A stretch of DNA of 64,000 nt from an uncultured delta proteobacterium (GCA_963785725.1 CAWAWS010000006.1:350109-414108), one strand, 5' to 3'; counted from the first letter of the stretch, positions 31,464 through 43,309 are shown. The notes: a model not told the origin generated them from the sequence alone. A program made the numbers and translations.

Positions 31464-31649
31464 GCGATCGATGCCTCCGAAAGCGTAGACAGTAGCGCAG
31501 TTGCAACGGTGGACGCGAACGCTGCCGCGGCCGCTCGTGTTACAGGGAAGCGGCGTCGATCGTCGCTCGCAAATGTGGATAAATGTAAAGGGTCAGTAAT
31601 GTTGGATTGCTCGATCGAAAAGCCGCCGTCATGATGTAACGACGTGTCT

Positions 31650-32264
31650 GTGAAGCGCACCGCGAATATTTTGGCAGCCATCATCGGGCTCTCGGCCGGC
31701 TCGGCGTTCGCAGCAGACGAAGGCTGGAAAGAGTGCGGCCACAAAGACGGCGTCATCGTCGAGAAGCGGGCGGTGCCGGGCTCGCGCTTCGTCGAGAATC
31801 GCGCGCGCGGCCATCTCGCGATGGCGCCGGCGGCGGTGCTCGATCACATCTGGAACGGCGTCGCGCACGAGTATCCGCCGACGGTCACCAAGCGCATCCT
31901 GATCAGTCAGGCGCCGCAAGAGATGGTCATCTACGATCAGATCCATACGCCGGTCGTGAGCGATCGCGATCTGACGACGCGGCTGCATAAAGTGGCCGAT
32001 CCGCAGAAGGGGATCTTCGAAATCCGCTTCGAGAGCGCCAGCGACGTCGGGCCGCCGCCCGATTCGCACTACGTTCGGCTGACCAAGGTGCGCGGGCTGT
32101 GGCACATCGAGTCCGACGGCGGCGGCGGCTCCAACGTCAGCTATCAGGTCTACAGCGAGCCGGGCGGCTCGGTCCCGGCGTTCTTGGTGCGCGGCACGTT
32201 GCAAGACGAGACCATGAAGGAGCTCGAGCGCGTCATCAACGTGCTCGGTCGCGTCAGGCACTGA
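31650..32264 (+). CDS. Exported START/SRPBCC lipid-binding domain protein
   Basis: Signal peptide; W....DGV, PVVSDRD, GLW, SEPGGSVPAFL. Confidence 0.8.
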   Translation: MKRTANILAAIIGLSAGSAFAADEGWKECGHKDGVIVEKRAVPGSRFVENRARGHLAMAPAAVLDHIWNGVAHEYPPTVTKRILISQAPQEMVIYDQIHTPVVSDRDLTTRLHKVADPQKGIFEIRFESASDVGPPPDSHYVRLTKVRGLWHIESDGGGGSNVSYQVYSEPGGSVPAFLVRGTLQDETMKELERVINVLGRVRH

Positions 32265-32556
32265 CGGTGGCGATGCCGCGACGGCGGCGCGCCTCCAAGC
32301 ACTCGCGGCCGCCGGGCTCGACGACGCGACAGGGCGTCGGGCGCATGCTGTAGATGCGGCAGCCGAAGTGGCCTTGGCGCGCGCGCAGCGCGGCGCAGTG
32401 GCCGTGCAGCATGCGCAGAAAGACGCGCTCTTTTTTTCGCACGACGTAGCGCGCCGTCGACTGCACGTCGAAGCGGCACAAGTCGGCGACGTTGACGCTG
32501 ACGTACTCCTCCGGGCCGTAACAGCAGGCGCCGCAGGTCTGACAATCGAGCTGCAT
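32254..32556 (-). CDS. YkgJ family Cys-cluster (CxxCxxCC) protein
   Basis: DCQTCGACC, CAAL, CRIYSMRPTPCR. Confidence 0.9.
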   Translation of the reverse strand: MQLDCQTCGACCYGPEEYVSVNVADLCRFDVQSTARYVVRKKERVFLRMLHGHCAALRARQGHFGCRIYSMRPTPCRVVEPGGRECLEARRRRGIATVSA

Positions 32557-32561
32557 TGCTG

Positions 32562-33245
32562 CTAACGATGGGCTTTGAGATCGGTCGTCGGCGGGACGGC
32601 GGCGAGCGGCGCCTTCGTCGACGGCGGCGCCAGCGGATGCAGGTAACCCATGCGATGCAGCTCGTTGATGCGCTGGCGGAGCGCGTGCACGAAGTTGCCG
32701 GTCGAGCGGCGCACGCCGCGATTGATCGCGCTCTTGGGCGCCACGGTATCGGGCACGGCCACGAGCTCGTAGGTGATCGCCGTCTTGCCGGGCGCGAACG
32801 GCTCGATATAGAGCGCGCCCGCGTACTGCTTGAGCGAGCCGTCCACCTTGTCGAAGCTGACGCGATAGGTCTCGCCGGGCAGCTTTTGGTAGCGGTAGCG
32901 CGCCGTCACCGTCGAGACGCCGGCCGGCCAGTGCAGATCGGCGGTCAGCTCGACGAGCGCGTGATCGGAGGTCGCCTCGCGCACCCGCGACGACGTCACG
33001 CGCGGCATGAAGTCGGCGTAGCGCGCGTAATCGGTGGCGATGCGGAAGACTTCCTCGGGCGTGGCGTCGATGACGCCGATGGCCTTGCCGCGATCGATGC
33101 CGCCGCCGGCCGGGTCGTTGAACGTCAAAACTTCATAGCGGCCGAGCGCATCGAGCCGCGCCGCGTCGAGACCGGGACGGGCCGAGGCCGAGCCGGTGAG
33201 CGCGAGGAGCAACGCGCCGCCGGTGAGCAAGCGGGGAACGAACAT
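32562..33245 (-). CDS. Exported SRPBCC/polyketide-cyclase-like protein
   Basis: Signal peptide; IDATPEEVF..TDYARYADFMP, GSLK..G. Confidence 0.8.
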   Translation of the reverse strand: MFVPRLLTGGALLLALTGSASARPGLDAARLDALGRYEVLTFNDPAGGGIDRGKAIGVIDATPEEVFRIATDYARYADFMPRVTSSRVREATSDHALVELTADLHWPAGVSTVTARYRYQKLPGETYRVSFDKVDGSLKQYAGALYIEPFAPGKTAITYELVAVPDTVAPKSAINRGVRRSTGNFVHALRQRINELHRMGYLHPLAPPSTKAPLAAVPPTTDLKAHR

Positions 33246-33273
33246 GCTAGCGTCAAAAGCTACCAGTCCGCCG

Positions 33274-34512
33274 ATGGCCCGTCAACGAGACCTGGAGTGC
33301 GCGCGCGGGCTTTTCGCGCGGCTGTTGCAAGCTGGTTTCAGCGACGAGGGCGTGCGGCGCTGGTTCGGCGTGCCGCGTGTAACCGATGCGCGCTGGGCGC
33401 CGCCGCCGTCGCCCGCGCTGCGCCCACGCCGCGGCATCGGCGGCTTTATCGCGCTGTGGGTGGCCGGTGAAGCCGTGGACGCGGCGGCGCTGCGGCCGGC
33501 GCCGACCGCCGACGAACGCGCGGCGCTGGTCGCGCTCGAGCTGACCGGCGATGACGGCGCGCGCTTGACGCCGCGCGTGCGCGTCTTGCCGTGGCGCGGG
33601 CTCGTCGTCGCCAGCGCCGCCGACGAAGCGTTCGACCTCTCGGCGCTCAATGTCGCGGCGTCGCTCGACGTCGCCGCGCTGGCCGCGAGCGCGGGCACGC
33701 TGTGGGACGTCGGCTGCGGCGCCGGGCTGTTGGCGCTCGTCGCGCGCCGGGCGGGCGCGCGCGTCTTCGCCAGCGACGTCGACGGCGCGCTCGTCGCGCA
33801 AGCGCGAGACAACGCCGCGCTCAACGGCCTCGCGATCGAAGGCGCGACCGGCGATCTCCTATCGGCCGCTCCGGCTGACGCGCGCTTCGATACGATCGTA
33901 TTCAATGCGCCGTTATTGCGTGCACCACTGGCCGCTGCCACGGGTGAAGCGCCGCGCTATTCGTCGGCTGCGGGCGGGGAAGCGTTGGCGCTGGCGTTTC
34001 TCGACGGGGTCGCCGCGCATCTGGCGCCGTCGGGACGCGTGCTCTTGCACGCGCAGCTGACGCCGGCCGTGGCGCGCGCGCTCGACGGCTGGGCGGCGCG
34101 CGCCGCGGTCACGAGCGTCGTGTTCGCGTACGCGCCCGACGGCACGCCGCACGCGCTGACCGAGATCGCGACCGGCGGCGCGGCCGGCGTGCGGCGCGTC
34201 GACGTGCCGCTGTCGCCGGCCTGTCCGCACTTGTCGCGCGCCATCTTCGCCGCGCTCGCCCGCTCGCGGACTCTCGACGATGCCGCGACGCCGACGGTCG
34301 CGCCCTGGCTCGAGCTGCGGACGAGCGAGCACTTCGCCGCAGGCGGGCGGCGCACGATCGAACGCCGCTTCGGCGGTCGCGTCCTCGATGACGACGACTT
34401 GGCGCTGCTCGATCGGCTGCGCGGTCAGTCGCTGGTGGAGCTGGCGTTATCGGCGGACGAGCGCGCGCGTCTCGACATCCTGGTCGCGCAGGGCTTCGTC
34501 AGCGCGGGCTGA
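33274..34512 (+). CDS. Class I SAM-dependent methyltransferase (HemK/MTS-like)
   Basis: WDVGCGAG, ASDVD, GDLL, FDTIVFNAP, HLAPSG. Confidence 0.82.
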   Translation: MARQRDLECARGLFARLLQAGFSDEGVRRWFGVPRVTDARWAPPPSPALRPRRGIGGFIALWVAGEAVDAAALRPAPTADERAALVALELTGDDGARLTPRVRVLPWRGLVVASAADEAFDLSALNVAASLDVAALAASAGTLWDVGCGAGLLALVARRAGARVFASDVDGALVAQARDNAALNGLAIEGATGDLLSAAPADARFDTIVFNAPLLRAPLAAATGEAPRYSSAAGGEALALAFLDGVAAHLAPSGRVLLHAQLTPAVARALDGWAARAAVTSVVFAYAPDGTPHALTEIATGGAAGVRRVDVPLSPACPHLSRAIFAALARSRTLDDAATPTVAPWLELRTSEHFAAGGRRTIERRFGGRVLDDDDLALLDRLRGQSLVELALSADERARLDILVAQGFVSAG

Positions 34513-35668
34513 GCGGCGCGTCCGTCGCCGTCGCCGGCAGCGGTCGCGCGAACGGCAGCCGCACCGTGAACGTCGTGCCGCGGCCCGGCTCGCTGTGCGC
34601 TTGCACGTCGCCGCCGAGCGTCTGCACGATCTCGTGCACGACGGCCAAGCCGAAGCCGCGCGCCACATCCTGCGTCTTGGTCGACACGAAGGGCTCGAAC
34701 ACGCGCGGCAACAGCTCGGGCGCGATACCCACCCCGGTATCCTCGACTTGCAGCACCGCGCGCAGCTCTTCGGCGAACACGCGAATGACGACGCGCCGCT
34801 CGCGATCGCTCGTCAGCGCTTCCACGGCGTTCATGAGGAGGTTGACGACGATCTGCGAGATCTGCGTCGCTTCGGCGGCGACCGGCGCCACGTCTTCGAC
34901 GTCGATGACGAGCTCGGCGCGCTGCCGGATCTCGCGCTCGACGATCGCCAAAGCCGCGTCGAGCGCGCGCTTCAGATCGGTCGACGTGCGCGGTGCGGTC
35001 GGCGAATCGCCGCGGCGGAAGCGATCGATGCGGCCGACGAGCTCGCGGCTGGCCAGCGCCGTCTCGCGCGCCGCCGTCAGCACGTCGGTCACGAGCGCCG
35101 CCACGTCCGCCGGCAGCTCGCTCGCCCGACGCGACAAGCCGGTCAAGGAGTCGGCGATCCACTCGACGTTCGTGTTGACCGTAGCCGCCGGGTTGGCCAG
35201 CTCGTGCAAGACCCGGCCGAGCAGATAGGTCGTCGTCGCCTGTTGCTCGCTTTGCAAGAGGCGCACTTGCAGCTCGCGCGTCATGACCCCCAGCTGATGC
35301 GCCTCGATCGCCGCGCGCAAGACCTCGGCCATCTGCTCTTCGCGCCAGGGCTTGAAGAGATAGCGGCTCACTTGACCGGCGTTGATGGCGGCGACGGCCG
35401 CGGTGACGTCGGCATAGGCGGTGACGATGACGCGCACGACGTCGGGATGGCGCTCGCGCACGAGGCGGCACAGCTCGACGCCGGTCATGCCCGGCATGCG
35501 CTGATCGGCGAGCAGGACCGCCGTCGGCGTCGTCGCCAGAAGCTGCAGCGCCGCGTCGCCGCTCGCGGCCGTCACGACGTCGAACAGCTCGTCGAAGCAG
35601 TACTTGAACGAGGTCAAGTTGGCCGCTTCGTCGTCGACGTACAGGATCTTGTAGCCGCGATAGTTCAC
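34499..35668 (-). CDS. Hybrid response regulator/histidine kinase (REC-HisKA-HATPase)
   Basis: ILYVDDE, ADQRMPGMTG, KPW; HELANP, NLLMNA, DTGVG, GFGL. Confidence 0.92.
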   Translation of the reverse strand: MNYRGYKILYVDDEAANLTSFKYCFDELFDVVTAASGDAALQLLATTPTAVLLADQRMPGMTGVELCRLVRERHPDVVRVIVTAYADVTAAVAAINAGQVSRYLFKPWREEQMAEVLRAAIEAHQLGVMTRELQVRLLQSEQQATTTYLLGRVLHELANPAATVNTNVEWIADSLTGLSRRASELPADVAALVTDVLTAARETALASRELVGRIDRFRRGDSPTAPRTSTDLKRALDAALAIVEREIRQRAELVIDVEDVAPVAAEATQISQIVVNLLMNAVEALTSDRERRVVIRVFAEELRAVLQVEDTGVGIAPELLPRVFEPFVSTKTQDVARGFGLAVVHEIVQTLGGDVQAHSEPGRGTTFTVRLPFARPLPATATDAPLSPR

Positions 35669-38572
35669 GCCCGAGCCTCGTTTGGCGGAGCGGGGAGCCA
35701 AATGCGAAAGCAGGCGCCCCGAAGCCGCGATGTTAACACGTCGATCGTTCCGCCATGCTCGTGCACGATGCGGCGCGTGATGTGCAAGCCGAGGCCGCTG
35801 CCTTCGCCGGCCGGGCGCGTCGTGAAGAACGGGTCGAAGATGCGCGCGCGTAATTCGTCGGGCACGCCGCGGCCGGAGTCGGAGAACGACAAGACGGCGC
35901 CGCCGTCGCGCGCTTCGGTCTGCACCTCGATGACGCCGGCGTCGCCGCTCTCGTGCACGGCGTGGATGGCGTTGTCGAGCAGGTTGACGAACACTTGGTT
36001 GAGCGCCGCCGGGCGCGCCAACACGAGGCCGCGGAACTCGAAGCGGCGGCGAATGTCGACGGCCCCGGGCGCGCGATGGCTGAGCACGCGAATGGCGGCC
36101 TCGATGCCTTCGTGCGGATCCCACAAGCGCGGCCCTTGGCGATCGGGCTGTCCGAGATCGAGCAGATCGCCGACGAGCCGGCTGACGCGCTCGGCGCACT
36201 CGATGGCCACGTCGACCATCTCGCGCGCTTGGGGCCGCACCGGCGCCGTCTCCAGCTCGCGGCGCAGCTTGGGCAGGCCCGACAAGATGGCGCCGATGGG
36301 ATTACGCACCTCGTGCGCCAGGCCGGCGGCGAGCTGCCCGAGCGTCGCCAGCTTCTCGCGGTGCACCGCTTCGTCGAGGAGCGTGCGCAGGCGCAGCTGC
36401 ACGTCGAGGCGCGCCAGCAGCTCGTCGGGATGGAACGGCTTGGCGATGTAGTCGTCGGCGCCCGCGGAAAAGCCGTGCAGCGCCCACTCGGTGTGCTGGC
36501 GCGCGGTCAGGAGCAGCACCGGCGTCGTCGGCGCGCTGCGTTTGATGTGCGCGCACAGCGCGTAGCCGTTCATGCCCGCCATCATGACGTCGCTGACGAC
36601 GGCGTCGGGGCGGCGCGCGGCGACGGCGGCCAGCGCCTCTTCCGCGCTCGCGCACTCGATGACGGCGTATTTGCGGCCGAGGACGCCGGCGATGAAGCCG
36701 CGCATGTCGGCGTGATCTTCGACGACGAGGATGCGCGGCGCCGTCGCCGGCAGCGTCGTCGTGAGCGAAGCCGGCGCGCCCACTTCCGCCGCCACCAAGG
36801 CCTCGACGGCGTAGGCGCGCAGCGGCACTGGAATGTCGCGCGCGGCGTGTGCGCCGGCCGGCTGCCGCACCGGCAACGTGACGGTGAACGTCGCGCCTTG
36901 GCCGGGCGCGCTGGCCACGCCGACCGTGCCGTGATGCAGCTCGACCAGCTCTTTGACGAGCGCGAGGCCAATGCCGCTGCCGGCGGCGCCCGGCGCCTCG
37001 GGCCGCTCGAAGCGCGTGAAGCGCTCGAAGATCTGCGCGCCGAGCTCGACGGGAATTCCGGGCCCGCTGTCGGCGACGGTGACGACGAGCGCGTCGCCGG
37101 CGGTCGCGCGCGTGACGGCGACGTCGACGTGGCCGCCGGCGGGCGTGAACTTGAGCGCGTTCGACAGCAAGTTGGCGAAGACGAACTCGAGCCGGCGCGC
37201 GTCACCTTCGATCGTCGGCTGCGCGGTCGCCGCCAGCGTCAGCTGCAGCTCGCGCCGGCGCGCCAGCGGCTGAAACTGCTCGACGGTGCGCTCGAGCGTG
37301 GCGACGAGGTCGAGCGCCTCCGTTTGCAAGCGCAGCTGCCCGGCCTGCAGGCGCGCCAGATCGAGCAGGTCGTCGACCATGGCGTTGAGCCGCACGGCGT
37401 TGCGCTTCACCAGCAGCAGCTCGTCTCGATGCTTTTGATGATCGTCGTCATTATTGGCGTCGTGCGCCAGTAAGTCTTCGAGCGGACCCAAAGATCAGCG
37501 TCAACGGCGTGCGCAGCTCGTGCGAGACGTTGGCCAAGAACTCGTCTTTGACTTGCGACAGCTGCTCGAGCCGGCTCAGCGACTCGGCCAGCTTCAGCGT
37601 CGTCAAGCGCAGCTCGGCCGTGCGCGTCTCCACCTTCGACTCGACGTCGCGCTTGGCCGCCTCCAGCTCGACGAAGCGCCGCTCCATCGCCTGCGCGGCC
37701 TCGGTGAGCGCGCGATTTTGCTCCTCGGTGAAGCGGGTCAGCTCGCGCTGCTGGCGGCGATCGTCGAGCACGCGGCCGGCGAGCGCGCCGAGGACGCCGG
37801 CGACGAGCGCGGTCGGCCAATGTCCGAGCGACAGCGGCGCGCCATGAACGGTGACGAGCGGCGCCCAATGGACGACGGCCAAGGCGGCGCCGAGGCTGCC
37901 GACGGCGCCGGCGAGCGTGCCGCGGATGCCGGCGCGCTCGGCCCAGTGCAGGCGATAGAGGCAGCGGGCGTCCCCGCGCGTTTGGCACTCGAGCTCCTCG
38001 ATCGTCGCCGCCGGCAGGCTCCACAGCGTCGGGCCGGCGGCCAGCTGCTCCTTGCGCAGCCGGCAGATGAGCGGCGAGCGCTCGCGCAGCGCCGGCGACG
38101 CCGGGCGATATTCGATCTCGGCGCGACCGCGCGCCACCGCCGACACTTGCACGAGGCTTACTTTGTTGAGCACGCCGACGAACTGCGGCAGCCGGACATA
38201 ACCGGCGCCGGGCGATCCGAAGGCGCGCAGGAGCGGATAGAGATAGCCCAACGCCTTGGGCGAGTAGGCGGCGCGCGTCGTCTCGGTCGCCAGCACGTCG
38301 GCGCCGAGGCGCGCGGCCAGCCAGTCGGTGAGCGCCTCGCAGAAGCGCAAGGAGACCCAGTTCGTCTCGTCGCGCAGGTCGGTGAGGCTCACGTCCCAGC
38401 TCGCGAGCAAGGGCGGCAGCTCGGTGGCAAACGGCGTCGCCAGATCGAGCAGCGGCTGCAGGTAGCGCGCGCTCAGCTCGAGCGCCAAGGCGCGGGTCGC
38501 CGCCGGCGTTGCCGTGGTGGAAGGCAGAGGCGCAGCCGTCGTCGTCGTCGTTGGTGTCGTTGTCGGTGTCAC
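35665..38572 (-). CDS. Hybrid sensor kinase: V4R/H-NOX-like sensor, 2 TM, HisKA-HATPase-REC-HisKA-HATPase; one-base frameshift near 37490
   Basis: ECQTRGDARC motif; SHELRTPLTLI continues as GPLEDLL in next frame; NLLSNALKFT; SDVMM; AHEVRNP; GLGL. Confidence 0.88.
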
Positions 38573-39345
38573 GGGGGATTCCGCGCGGCGGCGAACCAGC
38601 CGGCGGCGCAGGCGAAGGCGTCGGGGCGCGCGGCCCAACGGCGCAGGTCGGCCCACGCTTCGGCCGGATCGGCGACGAGATCGCTGTCGACCGGGCGCGC
38701 GGCCGGCGCCAAGAAGACGTCGACGAACGTCGGCGGCGCGACCTGCTCGGTCGTCACCGGCAAGACCTCGGCGCGCGGCTGCACGAAGCCGGCCTCGACG
38801 AGCAGGCGACGCAGCGCGCGGCCGATGAAGGGATCGCCGCCGCGTCGTCGCGCCGACTGCACGAGCGCGGCGCGCAAGACGGCCCAGCGCGGCGGCTCCG
38901 GATCGAAGAAGAGCGCGCCGTCATCGGCGTCGATGGCGAGGACGAGGCCGCCCGGCGCGAGCACGCGGCGCGCTTCGGCCAACAGCGCCGCCGGCGCCGG
39001 CACGTGACGCAGCACGAAGCGGAAGAGCACGACGTCGACGCTGCCGTCGGCGAGCGGCAGCGCGGCGCCGTCGGCGCGCGCCACGGTCGCGACGCTGCGC
39101 GCGCGCTGCAAATGCGCGGCCGACATGTCGACGGCGACGAGCGATCGCGGCGCGAAGTCCTGTCGCAGCGGCGCCAAGAGCGCGCCCGCGCCGCAGCCCA
39201 CCTCGAGCACGCGCGCGCCGTCGCCGAGACCGAGCCGACGCAAGAGCGCGCTCTCTTGGTTCCACAAGCGCGTCACTTGGTCGCGCAGCCGGGCCGCTTC
39301 CTGGCGCGCCTCGGCGTCGCTGCCGGCGTCGTAGCTGCCGCTCAT
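38569..39345 (-). CDS. Class I SAM-dependent methyltransferase
   Basis: GGAGG RBS + ATG 39345; VLEVGCGAG, ADGAALPLADGSVD, RVLAPGG, DPFIGR. Confidence 0.88.
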   Translation of the reverse strand: MSGSYDAGSDAEARQEAARLRDQVTRLWNQESALLRRLGLGDGARVLEVGCGAGALLAPLRQDFAPRSLVAVDMSAAHLQRARSVATVARADGAALPLADGSVDVVLFRFVLRHVPAPAALLAEARRVLAPGGLVLAIDADDGALFFDPEPPRWAVLRAALVQSARRRGGDPFIGRALRRLLVEAGFVQPRAEVLPVTTEQVAPPTFVDVFLAPAARPVDSDLVADPAEAWADLRRWAARPDAFACAAGWFAAARNPP

Positions 39346-41625
39346 GCCGCCTCCGTCGTGCGTGCGCGTAGACGTCCGTGCAGGAACCCATAACGACTGG
39401 CCACGTAGCGATGATACTCCTGCAAACCGTAGCGGTGCATCGCGTACAAGGTGCAGCCGGCGACGCGTCGCATGCCGGCCGCGCGCAGGTGCGCTTCGTC
39501 GATCGACTCGGGCACGAGCAGGAAGCGAAAAGGCGGATTGCCCGGCAGCGGCTGCGTCAGGAGCACGTCGCACAAGGCGTGAATGTCGGCCGCCAGAATC
39601 GCGCTCGGCCACGGGGATCAGCACGCCCGCCGACAACAGCGAGCTCAGGCTCAAGCCCGGCGACGCCAGCTCGCGCAAGAGGACCGCGCGCGGTCGGCCG
39701 CCGGCGAAGCTGCCCCAGGCTTCGCGGGCGCGAACCAGCCCGACTTTGGCGTAGGCGGCGCGCGTCGCCGGCATGCCAATCTCGCCCGGCCTGAGGCCGA
39801 GCGCGCGCGCGCAGATCGGGTCGAGCACGCGCGACGCCGCGTGCTCGACGAGCGACTCCTCGGCGCGGCGCAGCCGGCGCACGCCCTTCGGCGCCGGCGC
39901 GGCGCGGCGGCTCTCGGCCGTCCACAGGACGAAGCGCGTGGCGCCGCGATGCTCCGGCGTCGACCACTCGTCGAAGAACGCGTCCATGACGGCATGCTGC
40001 GAGCGCGCGTCCTCGTCGATGTAGCCGCACACGTATTCGCCGTCGGGCCGCGGAATCGCCAGCCGCACGAGGAGGCTGTGCAGCATGCCGGGATTGGCCG
40101 GCACCGCCGGCGACGCCACCGCGCTGTGCTGCAGCACCCACGTCGTCTCGTAGGCGCGCACCAGCGTCAACGTCGCGCCCACGCCGCCTTTCCAGCGGAT
40201 GAACGCCGTGCGCATGAGCCCGTCGGGATGTCGATGCGCCGTCTGCCACTGGGTGCGCGTGGCGTCGCGCGCGGCGTCGAGGTTGCGGCCCATCTCGTTC
40301 TCGAGCAGGTGCACCGACTGATGAAAGCGCACGATGTCGTCCAGATTGTCGCCGTCCGATAATTCGATGGGCTTGACCGCGAGCCGCGCCAGCTCGACGC
40401 GAAAACGATCGCTCTGCAGCTCCGAGAGCTGTCCGAGCTCGACGCCGCAGCGATGCGCCGACAGCGTCCGCACCGTCGCCGCGCTCGGCCGGATCGTCAG
40501 CGGGCTGCCGACACCGGGGAGGATGAGGCGCGCGTCGTCGAGCGGCAGGCCGGGCCAGATGGCCTCGTCGTCGGGCTCGCGGCGGAAGCCGACGCCGTGC
40601 GCCGACGCGTCCTCGACCGCGCGCTGCGAGCGGCGCCGCGTCACCGGGTGCACGAACTCGAAGCGGGCCACGCCGTCGCCGAGCACCAGCCGCTCCTCGT
40701 CGCGGCGGTGCCATTCGCGCACGACCGGCGCCGGGTTGAGCATGAGCACGCGGCCGACCATGCCCGTCAAGCGCGCGTAAAAACGATAGCCCGAGCCGTA
40801 CAGCGCGCACTCGAGCTGCACCGCGCCCACCGCCGGCGTCGCGTCGCCGCGCTCGAGCGTGCAGCGCATCGCCGGCAAGGCGTCGCGCGGCCCTTTGATC
40901 GGCTCGAGCCGGCCGCGCAGCAGCTGATGTCCGATACGCAGCGTCACCGGATGGCTCAAGTCGCACAGCGCCCACAAGATGCCGCGCACGCGCGTCGGCT
41001 CCGAGATCTCGAGCTGCTCGGCCGGATCGTCGTCGAGCGGCGCTTCGGTGGGCGCGCGCAGTCGCACCGAGCACTCGAAGCTGTGCCGTCCGAAGGGATC
41101 GACCACCTCGGCGCAGCTGAGCACGCTGCCTTCGGCGACGCGCACGATCTCGTTGTTCAAGATGATCGTGAGGCGCCGAAGGTGCGTGCCGCGCGTGAAC
41201 GGGTAGCTCGACTGCAGCCTGAGCGCGCGCAGCCCGATGTCGAGGATCGGCTGGCAGCACAGGCCGAGGCCGGCGCCGTCGGCGACGAACAGCGCCACCA
41301 TGCGGCCGGCCGGCGGGCTCACGCGCGCGCCGCGCGGCGGTCGCGGCTCGGGCCCGCGCTTGACGACGAAGCGCGCGCCGCGATCGAGCAGCTCGGTGAC
41401 GACGGCGTTGACGACGTAGGCGCTGCCGTCGAGCTGAAAGTCGATGGTCGCGTGCGTGCCCGGCTGCAGCTGTCGGCGCACCGGCGACAGCGTCACCACC
41501 GTCTCCCCGCGCCGCTGCGCGACGTCGTCGATGAGCGTCTGCAGCCGCGGCTCGGCAACCGAAGTGCGCAGCGATGCCGGCGTGAGCAGGCGGGCCGCGC
41601 GTCGCAACAACGAGGCTTGTGCCAC
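39342..41625 (-). CDS. Multi-PilZ-like protein with C-terminal GNAT/acyltransferase-like region; one-base frameshift near 39597
   Basis: RDEER (RxxxR) and DASAHG (DxSxxG) PilZ motifs; true C-terminus in ORF 39342..39575 whose TGA overlaps the methyltransferase ATG; start GTG 41625 or ATG 41631; GNAT call is inferred from secondary-structure pattern only. Confidence 0.7.
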
Positions 41626-41752
41626 GATCATATCCTACCGATTTGGCGCATTCCGTCCGTAATGCCGCGTGCAATCCAACGTGACTCGCGTCGCGACCGC
41701 CAAGCTACAGTGTGATCGGCGGTGCGATTTGCACGCGTGCTAGTGTCCGCTG

Positions 41753-43309
41753 GTGAGCGGTCGCGACGTTCGTACGCGCGTATATACGGCACTGGCCGGC
41801 CTCGCGCTCGTGCTCATGACGCTCGGGTTCGCCTATTGGACGCGCGCCTTCATCGCCGCCACGACGGTCGAGCTGGCGGACGGCCGCTTTCACACGCTCT
41901 TCGACGACGCCATGATCGCCATGCGCTACGCCTGGAACGTCGCGCACGGCAACGGCCTCGTGTTCAACCGCGGGCAGCGCATCGAAGGCTTCAGCAACCC
42001 GCTCTTCGTCCTCGCCATCCTGACGCCGGCGGCGCTGGCCGGCACCAAGAGCGCGGCGGTGGTGGTCGTGCAGTGGCTGGGCGCTCTCTTGCTCGTCGGC
42101 AACGCGGCGCTGACCGCGCGCGTCGCCGCGACGCTCGTCGCGTCCGAGCCGCGCGCCTGGCGATGGGTCGCGGCGCTCGTCGGTTTCGCGGCGGCGCTGC
42201 TCTATTACCCGCTCGATTATTGGACGCTGGGCGGCATGGAGACCGGCCTCGTCGCGCTGTTGGCGACGGCGGCGCTCGCCATCGCCGCGCAGCCGCGGCG
42301 CCCTTCGCGGCTGATCTTCGGCGTCATCCTCGGCCTGCTCGTCTGCACGCGCCTCGACGCGGCGACGACCGCCGCCGTCTTGTGGCTGTTCCGCGCCGCG
42401 ACCCTGCCGCGGCAGGACCGTCGCCGCCAGCTGGCGCGCGAGACCGCGATCGCCGTCGCGCTCATCGCCGTCATGCTGCTCGCGCGTCGCTGTTACTTCG
42501 GCGCCTGGCTCCCGAACACCTACGCGCTCAAGCTGCAAGGCGTCCCGTCGGCGATTCGCTGGCGCAACGGCTGGGTCTTCGTCACGCCGTTCGTGCGCGA
42601 CGAGGTCGGCGGCGCGCTCATCGTGACGCTCTTCGGCGCCGCCTGGCAGCGCTCGTCGCTGGCGCTGACGATAGGCCTGCTCTTGGGCACGGCCATCGTC
42701 TACCAAGCCTCGGTCGGCGGCGATCCGTGGGCCTATTGGCGCCACCTCGCGCCGTTCGTCCCGCTCGTCCTCGTCGGCTCGGCCTGGGGCGCGCTCGTCG
42801 TCTTGCGGCGCGTGCCCTGGCTCGGCGTCGTCGTCGCCGCGCTGGTCTTCTACGACGGCGTCGTGCGCGCCAACGCGCCCTTCGCCGCCGAAGCGCACTT
42901 TCGCCAGCTGCCCTATCTCGTCGACGAGAACCGCAAGAACGTCGCGCTCGCCGTGGCGCTCGGCCGCGTCTGCAAGCCCGAGGCGCGCCTCGGCCTCATC
43001 GCCGCCGGCGTCATCGGCTACTACAGCGACAACGAGATCGTCGACTTCCTCGGCAAGACCGACCGCCACATCGCGCGCCTGCCGCCCGATCTCCGCTTCG
43101 GCTTCCACGGCCTGTCGACGGTGCCGGGCCACAACAAATACGACTTGGACTATTCGATCGTGCAGCTGCGTCCCGACTACGTGCAGGTCGACAACTGGGG
43201 CCGCCAAAGCGTGCACGCCTTCGTCGACGGGCACTATCAGCGCGCCGGCAAGCTGTGGCTCCTGCGCGGCTCGCCCAACATTCGCTGGGACGTCGCGCTG
43301 AGACGTTGA
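41753..43309 (+). CDS. GT-C fold membrane glycosyltransferase (AftB-like)
   Basis: DDAMIAMRYAWN..GNGLVFN.G.RIEGFSNPL, GMET, PNTY..K, AAGVIGY, DFLG. Confidence 0.82.
   Translation: MSGRDVRTRVYTALAGLALVLMTLGFAYWTRAFIAATTVELADGRFHTLFDDAMIAMRYAWNVAHGNGLVFNRGQRIEGFSNPLFVLAILTPAALAGTKSAAVVVVQWLGALLLVGNAALTARVAATLVASEPRAWRWVAALVGFAAALLYYPLDYWTLGGMETGLVALLATAALAIAAQPRRPSRLIFGVILGLLVCTRLDAATTAAVLWLFRAATLPRQDRRRQLARETAIAVALIAVMLLARRCYFGAWLPNTYALKLQGVPSAIRWRNGWVFVTPFVRDEVGGALIVTLFGAAWQRSSLALTIGLLLGTAIVYQASVGGDPWAYWRHLAPFVPLVLVGSAWGALVVLRRVPWLGVVVAALVFYDGVVRANAPFAAEAHFRQLPYLVDENRKNVALAVALGRVCKPEARLGLIAAGVIGYYSDNEIVDFLGKTDRHIARLPPDLRFGFHGLSTVPGHNKYDLDYSIVQLRPDYVQVDNWGRQSVHAFVDGHYQRAGKLWLLRGSPNIRWDVALRR

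Follow-up and report, generated by a model that had tools for sequence, protein, structure and literature searches.

A pixB-like operon of an uncultured delta proteobacterium as a candidate c-di-GMP-gated signal synthase with its own receptor and kinase relay

A window of 64,000 nucleotides from an uncultured delta proteobacterium (GCA_963785725.1 CAWAWS010000006.1:350109-414108) carries on its minus strand an operon of four genes (Table 1), which code for a protein with PilZ and GNAT domains (gene 1), a methyltransferase that depends on S-adenosylmethionine (SAM; gene 2), a hybrid histidine kinase with a sensor domain of the V4R/H-NOX fold (gene 3) and a receiver-controlled kinase (REC-kinase, gene 4). 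The domain folds are recognisable, the catalytic motifs are intact, the gene order is conserved, and the genes are homologous to pixB-MXAN_2605-MXAN_2606 and to AsgA of Myxococcus xanthus. On sequence grounds, the locus is homologous to the pixB operon and has an AsgA-family gene in addition. The operon may well be a synthase of an N-acyl signal, gated by cyclic di-GMP (c-di-GMP), with its own receptor and relay, a reading that we favour with modest confidence. Beyond the PixB paper and one 2026 preprint, a literature search outside of which most subscription papers lay turned up nothing that describes the cassette as a system.

The four genes and their products

The genes are joined by 4-nucleotide stop/start overlaps (ATGA at 39342-45, GTGA at 38569-72 and GTGA at 35665-68) once two single bases are corrected, exactly as an earlier interpretation of the DNA (the sequence-only reading) had placed them. 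As assembled, one extra base shifts the frame of gene 1 near 39597 and another that of gene 3 near 37490. The former is absent from contigs of closely related strains (three contigs, in two of four runs), and the latter from one related-strain contig, which is the weaker case (depth 3.9, with about 27 letters on one side). Given that related-strain contigs lack the extra bases and that intact homologues are present, namely P0001, which has 758 amino acids and is 88% identical to gene 1, and unbroken gene 3-type sensors of about 920 amino acids in L013, L022, L030 and L035, both frameshifts are most likely assembly errors. The possibility that the window copy is a pseudogene was rejected on the basis of the near-identical contigs without the extra bases. 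A possible start of gene 1 is the ATG at 41631, two codons upstream of 41625.

No family was named by Pfam or NCBIfam for gene 1 or P0001; the PilZ model of Pfam matches 35 of 66 gene 1 homologues, weakly, and a sequence search of the PDB returned only the PilZ domain of Alg44 (E 0.06). The fold was obtained from an AlphaFold2 model of the intact homologue, built on a 66-row alignment (predicted local distance difference test, pLDDT, 89.5) and then submitted to fold searches. The model has four beta-barrels, which are PilZN-like (residues 1-95, Z 9.4), PilZ (96-193, Z 10.1), YcgR-N (203-309, Z 11.3) and again PilZ (307-417, Z 10.8, root-mean-square deviation (rmsd) 1.9), and these are followed at residues 413-734 by a tandem GNAT, the fold that the sequence-only reading had expected for the C-terminus. 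The top structural match of this region is the histidine N-acetyltransferase 9emd (Z 14.8, rmsd 4.6, 270 aligned), and a glycine N-acyltransferase reaches Z 10.8. Because protein acyltransferases score close behind the histidine enzyme, the substrate of gene 1 is not fixed by the modelled fold.

Two PilZ signatures, one degenerate and one intact, had been read from gene 1, and both are conserved in its 66 close homologues. In the second (RDEER at 40704-40690 and DASAHG at 40611-40594), R310, R314, D341 and G346 are found in 66/66 and S343 in 64/66. The first has the degenerate form RxxRxxR/DxGxx(G/A), and its R97, R100 and D131 are likewise kept in 66/66. The second signature aligns to R331-R335 of PixB, and a c-di-GMP site is predicted in gene 1 from this intact, conserved motif. 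The host genome (8.9 Mb, 47 contigs) also holds a solo PixB-family paralogue (G000:C21:40799-43393).

Gene 2 matches Methyltransf_11 of Pfam (1.5e-20), which bears out its earlier assignment as a SAM methyltransferase, and no PhcB model is found among its best 25 NCBIfam matches. In genes 3 and 4, Pfam found HisKA, HATPase and REC domains in the proposed arrangement, with two kinase cores around a REC in gene 3 and a REC-kinase in gene 4, and their N/G boxes and all three H-boxes are intact, as are the Asp/Lys motifs of both receivers. A DNA-binding output and a histidine phosphotransfer (HPt) domain had been described as lacking, and indeed no helix-turn-helix (HTH) or HPt domain was found by Pfam in the four genes.

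The V4R match of Pfam in gene 3 is weak (E 0.016, below the cut-off). The model of the N-terminal domain (pLDDT 93.4) has the V4R/H-NOX fold that had been anticipated, with H-NOX 4u99 as top match (Z 14.4, rmsd 3.2, 172 aligned), followed by VirS (Z 12.7), Bet3 (Z 9.1) and PoxR (Z 7.9). The fold is common to H-NOX, VirS, PoxR/DmpR/MopR and TRAPP Bet3 (Z 7-14), from which the gene 3 domain differs in being only 9-17% identical, in having no haem ligands and in being fused to a kinase by a hairpin. Of these relatives, PoxR, TRAPP Bet3 and VirS bind phenols, lipids or drug-like ligands. A zinc site is predicted at 38065-37961 (C-x22-E-x2-C-x7-C), with a spacing that presumably fits the zinc site of PoxR and of Shewanella H-NOX and the C-x22-E/H-x2-C-x7-C site of V4R ligand-binding domains; 30 of 41 aligned sensors have kept all three cysteines, and 11 have none of them. 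Haem-binding H-NOX proteins are marked by a proximal His and a YxSxR motif. Across the same 41 sensors, the proximal His is not conserved (any His in that helix in six, in differing places) and just two have YxSxR at any position, both features being absent from the window protein. Haem sensing of the H-NOX type was rejected, given that the haem ligands are missing.

A pair of hydrophobic segments comes after the V4R domain in 10 of 11 homologues, with a modest hydropathy peak (1.66) in the window protein. Given that this hydrophobic hairpin lies between the V4R domain and the kinase, we infer that the sensor pocket and the kinase are both on the cytoplasmic side. The V4R-like domain is elsewhere a widespread myxobacterial input module, carried by cyclases, GGDEF proteins, Ser/Thr kinases and histidine kinases (L194-L213; G000:C39:666448-670424), and the same methyltransferase family is often encoded upstream of proteins with this domain.

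Kinship with the pixB operon and AsgA of Myxococcus xanthus

The window operon is homologous end to end to the pixB operon of M. xanthus (PixB/MXAN_2604, MXAN_2605 and MXAN_2606), with the same order and the same 4-nucleotide overlaps. The published start and stop primers of pixB match with 0-2 mismatches in 10 of 30 loci tested, and in one of them, L172, both are exact and the R331A primer lies at the expected offset. The L172 family member has 804 amino acids and carries R121, R125, R331 and R335, with R121 and R331 at the published positions, and this PixB orthologue matches a profile built from close relatives only (E 3.8e-27, profile positions 104-740). It is followed, with 4-nucleotide overlaps, by a 262-amino-acid methyltransferase and then by a V4R-HK-REC-HK protein (HK, histidine kinase), both of which cluster at 90% identity with DK1622 proteins and have the same domains and zinc motif. 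By order, architecture and clustering, these DK1622 proteins are taken to be MXAN_2605 and MXAN_2606. Gene 2 shares 32% identity and its methyltransferase family with the DK1622 protein encoded after pixB, and between gene 3 and the DK1622 kinase the identity is 32-36%, the zinc motif being kept.

The window locus differs from the pixB operon in that gene 1 is only about 22% identical to PixB and falls in a separate clade, in that its first PilZ signature is RxxRxxR and not RxxxR, and in that the REC-kinase gene lies within the operon, whereas it is unlinked in the pixB-carrying genome. The comparison with PixB in the sequence-only reading, which concerned the combination of PilZ and acetyltransferase domains, turned out to be stronger than was claimed, PixB being a true family member in the same three-gene order. 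In L174, the pixB operon has behind it, in the same orientation, a gene for an oligopeptide:H+ symporter (L174:13435-14826).

According to the available text of the PixB paper (PMC8316039), PixB binds c-di-GMP in vitro, its GNAT region is necessary and sufficient for normal reversals, the R331A change blocks development, and the protein is indispensable for M. xanthus to form fruiting bodies; it acts upstream of Frz, and the substrate is described as unknown. The same text places pixB probably in an operon with two downstream genes, which it does not discuss, and describes one GNAT, whereas the model presented here has tandem GNATs and four barrels. In the available part of another report, pixB is induced during development (PMC8844925). 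MXAN_2606 is termed an uncharacterised orphan HK-RR-HK (RR, response regulator) in the available text of the 2026 preprint (bioRxiv 10.64898/2026.08.28.747804), where insertions in asgA and MXAN_2606 fall, together with those in carD and digR, in one fitness class of poor aggregation and spore enrichment. The main text of this preprint, as available, names none of pixB, 2604 and 2605, a silence that does not speak for rescue in the pool.

Gene 4 has the REC-HisKA-HATPase architecture and the size (about 385 amino acids) of M. xanthus AsgA (MXAN_2670), a developmental regulator of the A-signal, to which it is 34% identical (E 6e-60), and its only match below 1e-40 in the pixB-carrying genome clusters with DK1622 AsgA. 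In 9 of 10 genomes, chosen for having the operon, the best whole-genome match of AsgA is the operon REC-kinase. AsgA differs from gene 4 in that the two are not reciprocal best matches in the window genome and in that AsgA groups (support 0.86) with the operon REC-kinases of L192, L113 and L114; the synthases and methyltransferases of these loci are near those of the pixB operon. In a family of 88 genomes, outside genus g40, 11 of 12 genomes that have a full-length operon-type synthase also carry an AsgA-like match, against 1 of 21 without the synthase, these kin not being independent of one another, and in genus g40 an AsgA-like match occurs in 49 of 55 genomes and a full synthase in only three. 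Gene 4 is by homology an AsgA-family kinase and not a proven orthologue. To our knowledge, no kinase has yet been identified that acts upstream of the AsgA receiver. The host genome has a second AsgA-like REC-kinase (C39:356507-357700), encoded just after a gene that by eye resembles those for thiamine-diphosphate enzymes.

Genes 3 and 4 also resemble, as an HK-REC-HK and REC-HK pair, the LvrA/LvrB pair of Leptospira, in which, according to the available text (PMC13269768), LvrB is a REC-DHp-CA kinase that is activated by LvrA, through phosphorylation of its receiver. LvrA is the best NCBIfam match of gene 3, in its C-terminal part only, and both scores lie far below the family cut-offs (259 against 1200 bits for LvrA and 76 against 500 bits for LvrB). 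By analogy, the pair would work like LvrA/LvrB, and it is not a member of that family. The Leptospira system differs by its LvrC anti-sigma output, which has no counterpart at the window locus, and no synthase or V4R input is seen in the available text (PMC13269768). A methyltransferase, a sensor kinase and a receiver protein without a DNA-binding site are found in Ralstonia phcBSR (PMC11960443, PMC8578825). This parallel, drawn in the sequence-only reading, is one of gene order only; the window locus adds the PilZ-GNAT gene and the V4R sensor, and its methyltransferase is dispensable.

Gene order and neighbours across the family

Forty loci were found, 34 of them at an identity of at least 38%, and after eight were dropped in which the contig ends within or just after gene 1, 26 close loci were left, among which two pairs are near-duplicates. 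The check on conservation of gene order that had been called for came out in favour of the operon: the V4R sensor lies next to gene 1, or after the methyltransferase, in all 26, and the REC-kinase follows the sensor in all 21 that extend that far. Order and translational overlaps are retained from 88% down to about 22% identity. The three-kinase relay that had been proposed is present in the window, but it is a variant only, with a single kinase core in 17 of 22 close sensors and two in the other five.

The 63 distant loci are the top-ranked matches and were not drawn at random; some ten of them are pixB orthologues, and 58 have 3 kb downstream. Within 6 kb, the V4R sensor is found in 36 of these 58 and the methyltransferase family in 25, and in an even sample of the phylum the sensor is found within 6 kb in 10 of 19 distant loci. 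Only four V4R-type sensor domains occur in the whole 8.9-Mb host genome. Close relatives of gene 1 occur in Polyangia and Myxococcales records, and a broad profile of the family has a match in 131 of 208 genomes of one myxobacterial family. A mirror-tree analysis, with only 11 close loci, gave partial correlations of 0.40 for the V4R domain and 0.40 for the kinase core, and a complex prediction with the GNAT region, the methyltransferase and the V4R domain scored 0.00, which is uninformative either way. In L113, L114, L123 and L129, the V4R domain is replaced by unrelated multi-pass membrane domains (HisKA_7TM in L129) and the synthase is kept.

In other clades of the gene 1 family the neighbours are different and code for enzymes that act on small molecules. 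TrzS/Rv1355c-family ThiF-nitroreductases score above the curated cut-off in 9/9 tested loci (L059, L119-L122, L124, L128, L130 and L139), directly after the PixB-like gene in L059, L130 and L139, and no other acyltransferase was named by Pfam among the neighbours that were scanned. In the available texts, the substrate that OxzB and TrzS need is an N-acyl amino acid supplied by the adjacent upstream N-acyltransferase (bioRxiv 10.1101/2020.06.11.147165; PMC12856293). In one clade, the gene 1-family member stands in the place of OxzA/TrzA before a TrzS-family enzyme, a likeness by position only. The window locus differs from OxzAB/TrzAS in having no ThiF-nitroreductase, and the oxzAB paper, in its available text, mentions no PilZ or kinase (bioRxiv 10.1101/2020.06.11.147165). 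The V4R sensors linked to TrzS-family loci lack the cysteines. Haem-oxygenase-like proteins stand beside gene 1-family members in another branch of the tree, and further clades have B12 radical SAM enzymes, an acyl-CoA ligase and an NAD-reductase as neighbours. A second PixB paralogue of Myxococcus-like genomes (L184-L188, L060 and L058) is followed by a haem-oxygenase-like protein and lacks a nearby sensor.

A sister cassette, in which a PilZ module is fused to a methyltransferase, was found in three of the four regions fetched in the follow-up of g40. Two of the three fusions also match PF02273, which we take to be the LuxD-type acyl transferase. All three (L217:7480-10668, L218:5489-8422 and L219:5876-9166) stand immediately before a membrane HK-REC-HK, and the two from g40 also have an AsgA-like kinase in the vicinity. 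The fusion is a candidate c-di-GMP-gated fatty-acid methyl-ester synthase, and an unrelated acyl-handling enzyme in the same slot gives a second line of support for a lipid-signal synthase. The surroundings include an enoyl-CoA hydratase upstream in L217 and a divergent MMPL transporter in L218.

At the window locus itself, a scan for promoters and terminators gave nothing useful. An unrelated, convergent methyltransferase gene (MTS/PrmA-like, 33196-34512, plus strand) overlaps the end of gene 4 and has a match in only one related locus (L022, weak). Downstream of the operon (31644-33245), a small cysteine-cluster open reading frame lies between two START/polyketide-cyclase lipid-binding proteins. 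A divergent gene (41753-43309, plus strand) codes for a 518-amino-acid membrane protein that has no Pfam or NCBIfam match and was not seen beside homologues.

Table 1. Features of the operon, in positions of the window
Feature	Position	Strand	Remark
Gene 1, PixB-family PilZN-PilZ-PilZN-PilZ and tandem GNAT, about 760 amino acids	39342..41631	-	Frame broken near 39597
First PilZ signature, degenerate, RxxRxxR ... DxGxxA	41224..41343	-	Within gene 1
Second PilZ signature, intact, RDEER ... DASAHG	40594..40704	-	Within gene 1
Tandem GNAT region, limits approximate; conserved WxxQH and GLxRxR	39400..40380	-	Within gene 1
Gene 2, class I SAM methyltransferase, 258 amino acids	38569..39345	-	Family of the gene after pixB
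Gene 3, V4R/H-NOX-fold domain, hydrophobic hairpin, HisKA-HATPase, REC, HisKA-HATPase	35665..38572	-	MXAN_2606 homologue
V4R/H-NOX-fold sensor domain of gene 3	37928..38497	-	Without conserved haem ligands
Gene 4, REC-HisKA-HATPase, 389 amino acids, AsgA/LvrB-type receiver-controlled kinase	34499..35668	-	

Proposed mechanism and its alternatives

In the mechanism that we propose, c-di-GMP would stimulate the product of gene 1 to synthesise an N-acylated small molecule, plausibly an N-acyl amino acid or amine, which the gene 2 enzyme would methylate, possibly as optional tailoring or as an on/off step. The product would be the ligand of the gene 3 sensor pocket, and such a ligand would be intracellular or membrane-permeant, as the V4R domain and the kinase cores probably face the cytoplasm. 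Phosphate would then pass from the first kinase to the internal REC, switching on the second kinase, and from there to the REC of gene 4, switching on the gene 4 kinase by the logic of LvrA/LvrB, towards an unlinked output. We consider this combination of signal synthase and receptor to have a little better than an even chance of being right. In its favour are the match of the GNAT region to histidine N-acetyltransferase, the small-molecule enzymes beside other family members, the acyl transferase-methyltransferase fusion of the sister cassette, the V4R sensor in all 26 close and 36 of 58 distant loci against four such domains in the host genome, the ligands bound by V4R-fold relatives, the REC-kinase behind the sensor, the whole-genome matches of AsgA and the fitness class shared by asgA and MXAN_2606 insertions. 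A wider proposal, which is tentative and in our view falls well short of even, is that myxobacteria have an undescribed lipid-signal system under c-di-GMP control, with an N-acyl signal synthesised by PixB-family enzymes, perceived by V4R hybrid kinases and passed on by AsgA-family kinases. In M. xanthus, PixB would then act through MXAN_2606 on AsgA, with asgA as the displaced fourth gene of the operon.

Several observations weigh against the proposed mechanism and its extension. No molecule was detected, and tandem GNATs that act on proteins match gene 1 nearly as well as the histidine enzyme (VipF Z 12.2, N-myristoyltransferase Z 11.3). Mutants of PixB in the c-di-GMP site still support motility (PMC8316039, available text). 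The methyltransferase is present in 16 of the 26 close loci and missing, within the locus, from the other 10. Given this absence, and its presence beside V4R sensors without PixB (6 of 20 loci, and G000:C39:666448-670424), the methyltransferase does not represent a second biosynthetic step that is obligatory, a point on which the sequence-only reading is weakened. No V4R sensor is found within 6 kb in 22 of the 58 distant loci, including the paralogue on C21 of the host genome. The sensor domain occurs in 103 of 301 genomes and the synthase in 26 (three candidates were scored per genome in the synthase search), and a PixB-family neighbour is found at 0 of 20 further V4R sensors, 14 of which are fused to nucleotide cyclases. 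The TrzS and haem-oxygenase neighbours fall together in a single distant clade, which amounts to about one event and is not the clade of the window. With regard to AsgA, gene 4 ranks only second among the matches to the AsgA orthologue in the window genome (187 against 198 bits) and lies in a different clade from AsgA (weak deep support). The first interpretation of the locus is partly supported, and every computational prediction that it made held.

The main rival explanation, which we judge unlikely, is that the gene 1 enzyme acylates proteins under c-di-GMP control and the gene 2 enzyme methylates proteins, both tuning the neighbouring kinase or Frz covalently, and that the V4R domain senses an unrelated ligand. 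The near-equal fold scores of protein-acylating tandem GNATs are in line with this, as are the action of PixB, with its substrate stated as unknown, upstream of Frz (PMC8316039, available text) and the methyltransferase family that tracks V4R sensors without PixB in the 6 of 20 loci and on C39. Nonetheless, protein modification leaves unexplained the TrzS-family, haem-oxygenase-like, radical-SAM and acyl-CoA-ligase neighbours and the fusion of acyltransferase and methyltransferase in the same slot, and the swapping of the sensor domain while the synthase stays, in L113, L114, L123 and L129, also argues against it. It is less probable again that the methyltransferase is the true signal synthase, producing a PhcB-like methyl ester from a fatty acid or phenol, with gene 1 supplying, competing for or inactivating the substrate. 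This would agree with the adjacency of the methyltransferase to V4R sensors without PixB, with the acyl transferase-methyltransferase fusion of the sister cassette and with the methyl-ester signal that PhcB makes and PhcS senses (PMC11960443, PMC8578825), but gene 1, the sensor and the REC-kinase occur in 10 of the 26 close loci with no methyltransferase within the locus, the part of those genomes that was searched for it.

An operon that integrates c-di-GMP with redox, without a dedicated ligand, the V4R/H-NOX domain being a redox, zinc or gas sensor, is in our estimate improbable. H-NOX proteins are the best structural matches (4u99, Z 14.4) and three cysteines are kept in 30 of 41 sensors; set against this are a proximal His that is not conserved (6/41), the rarity of YxSxR (2/41), the 11 sensors devoid of the cysteines, and VirS, a small-molecule binder, scoring close behind (Z 12.7). 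Least probable of all, and very much so, are c-di-GMP and two-component parts that are merely co-regulated without a chemical link, or a decaying pseudo-operon: the assembly has two frameshifts, and synthase and sensor are also found apart, but near-identical contigs are free of the extra bases and the order and overlaps persist from 88% to about 22% identity.

The locus unites in one operon genes of the PixB, MXAN_2606 and AsgA types, and the signal-synthase mechanism would explain both the role of PixB and what activates AsgA. Should PixB indeed act through MXAN_2606 on AsgA, then c-di-GMP, reversal control and A-signalling would be joined in one pathway. If the mechanism is true, the swapped tailoring enzymes and sensor domains would give clade-specific signals, and the operon would represent a new synthase-receptor signalling family, with a second-messenger-gated synthase and a V4R-pocket receptor, that is widespread in Myxococcota and diversified into unexplored chemistry.

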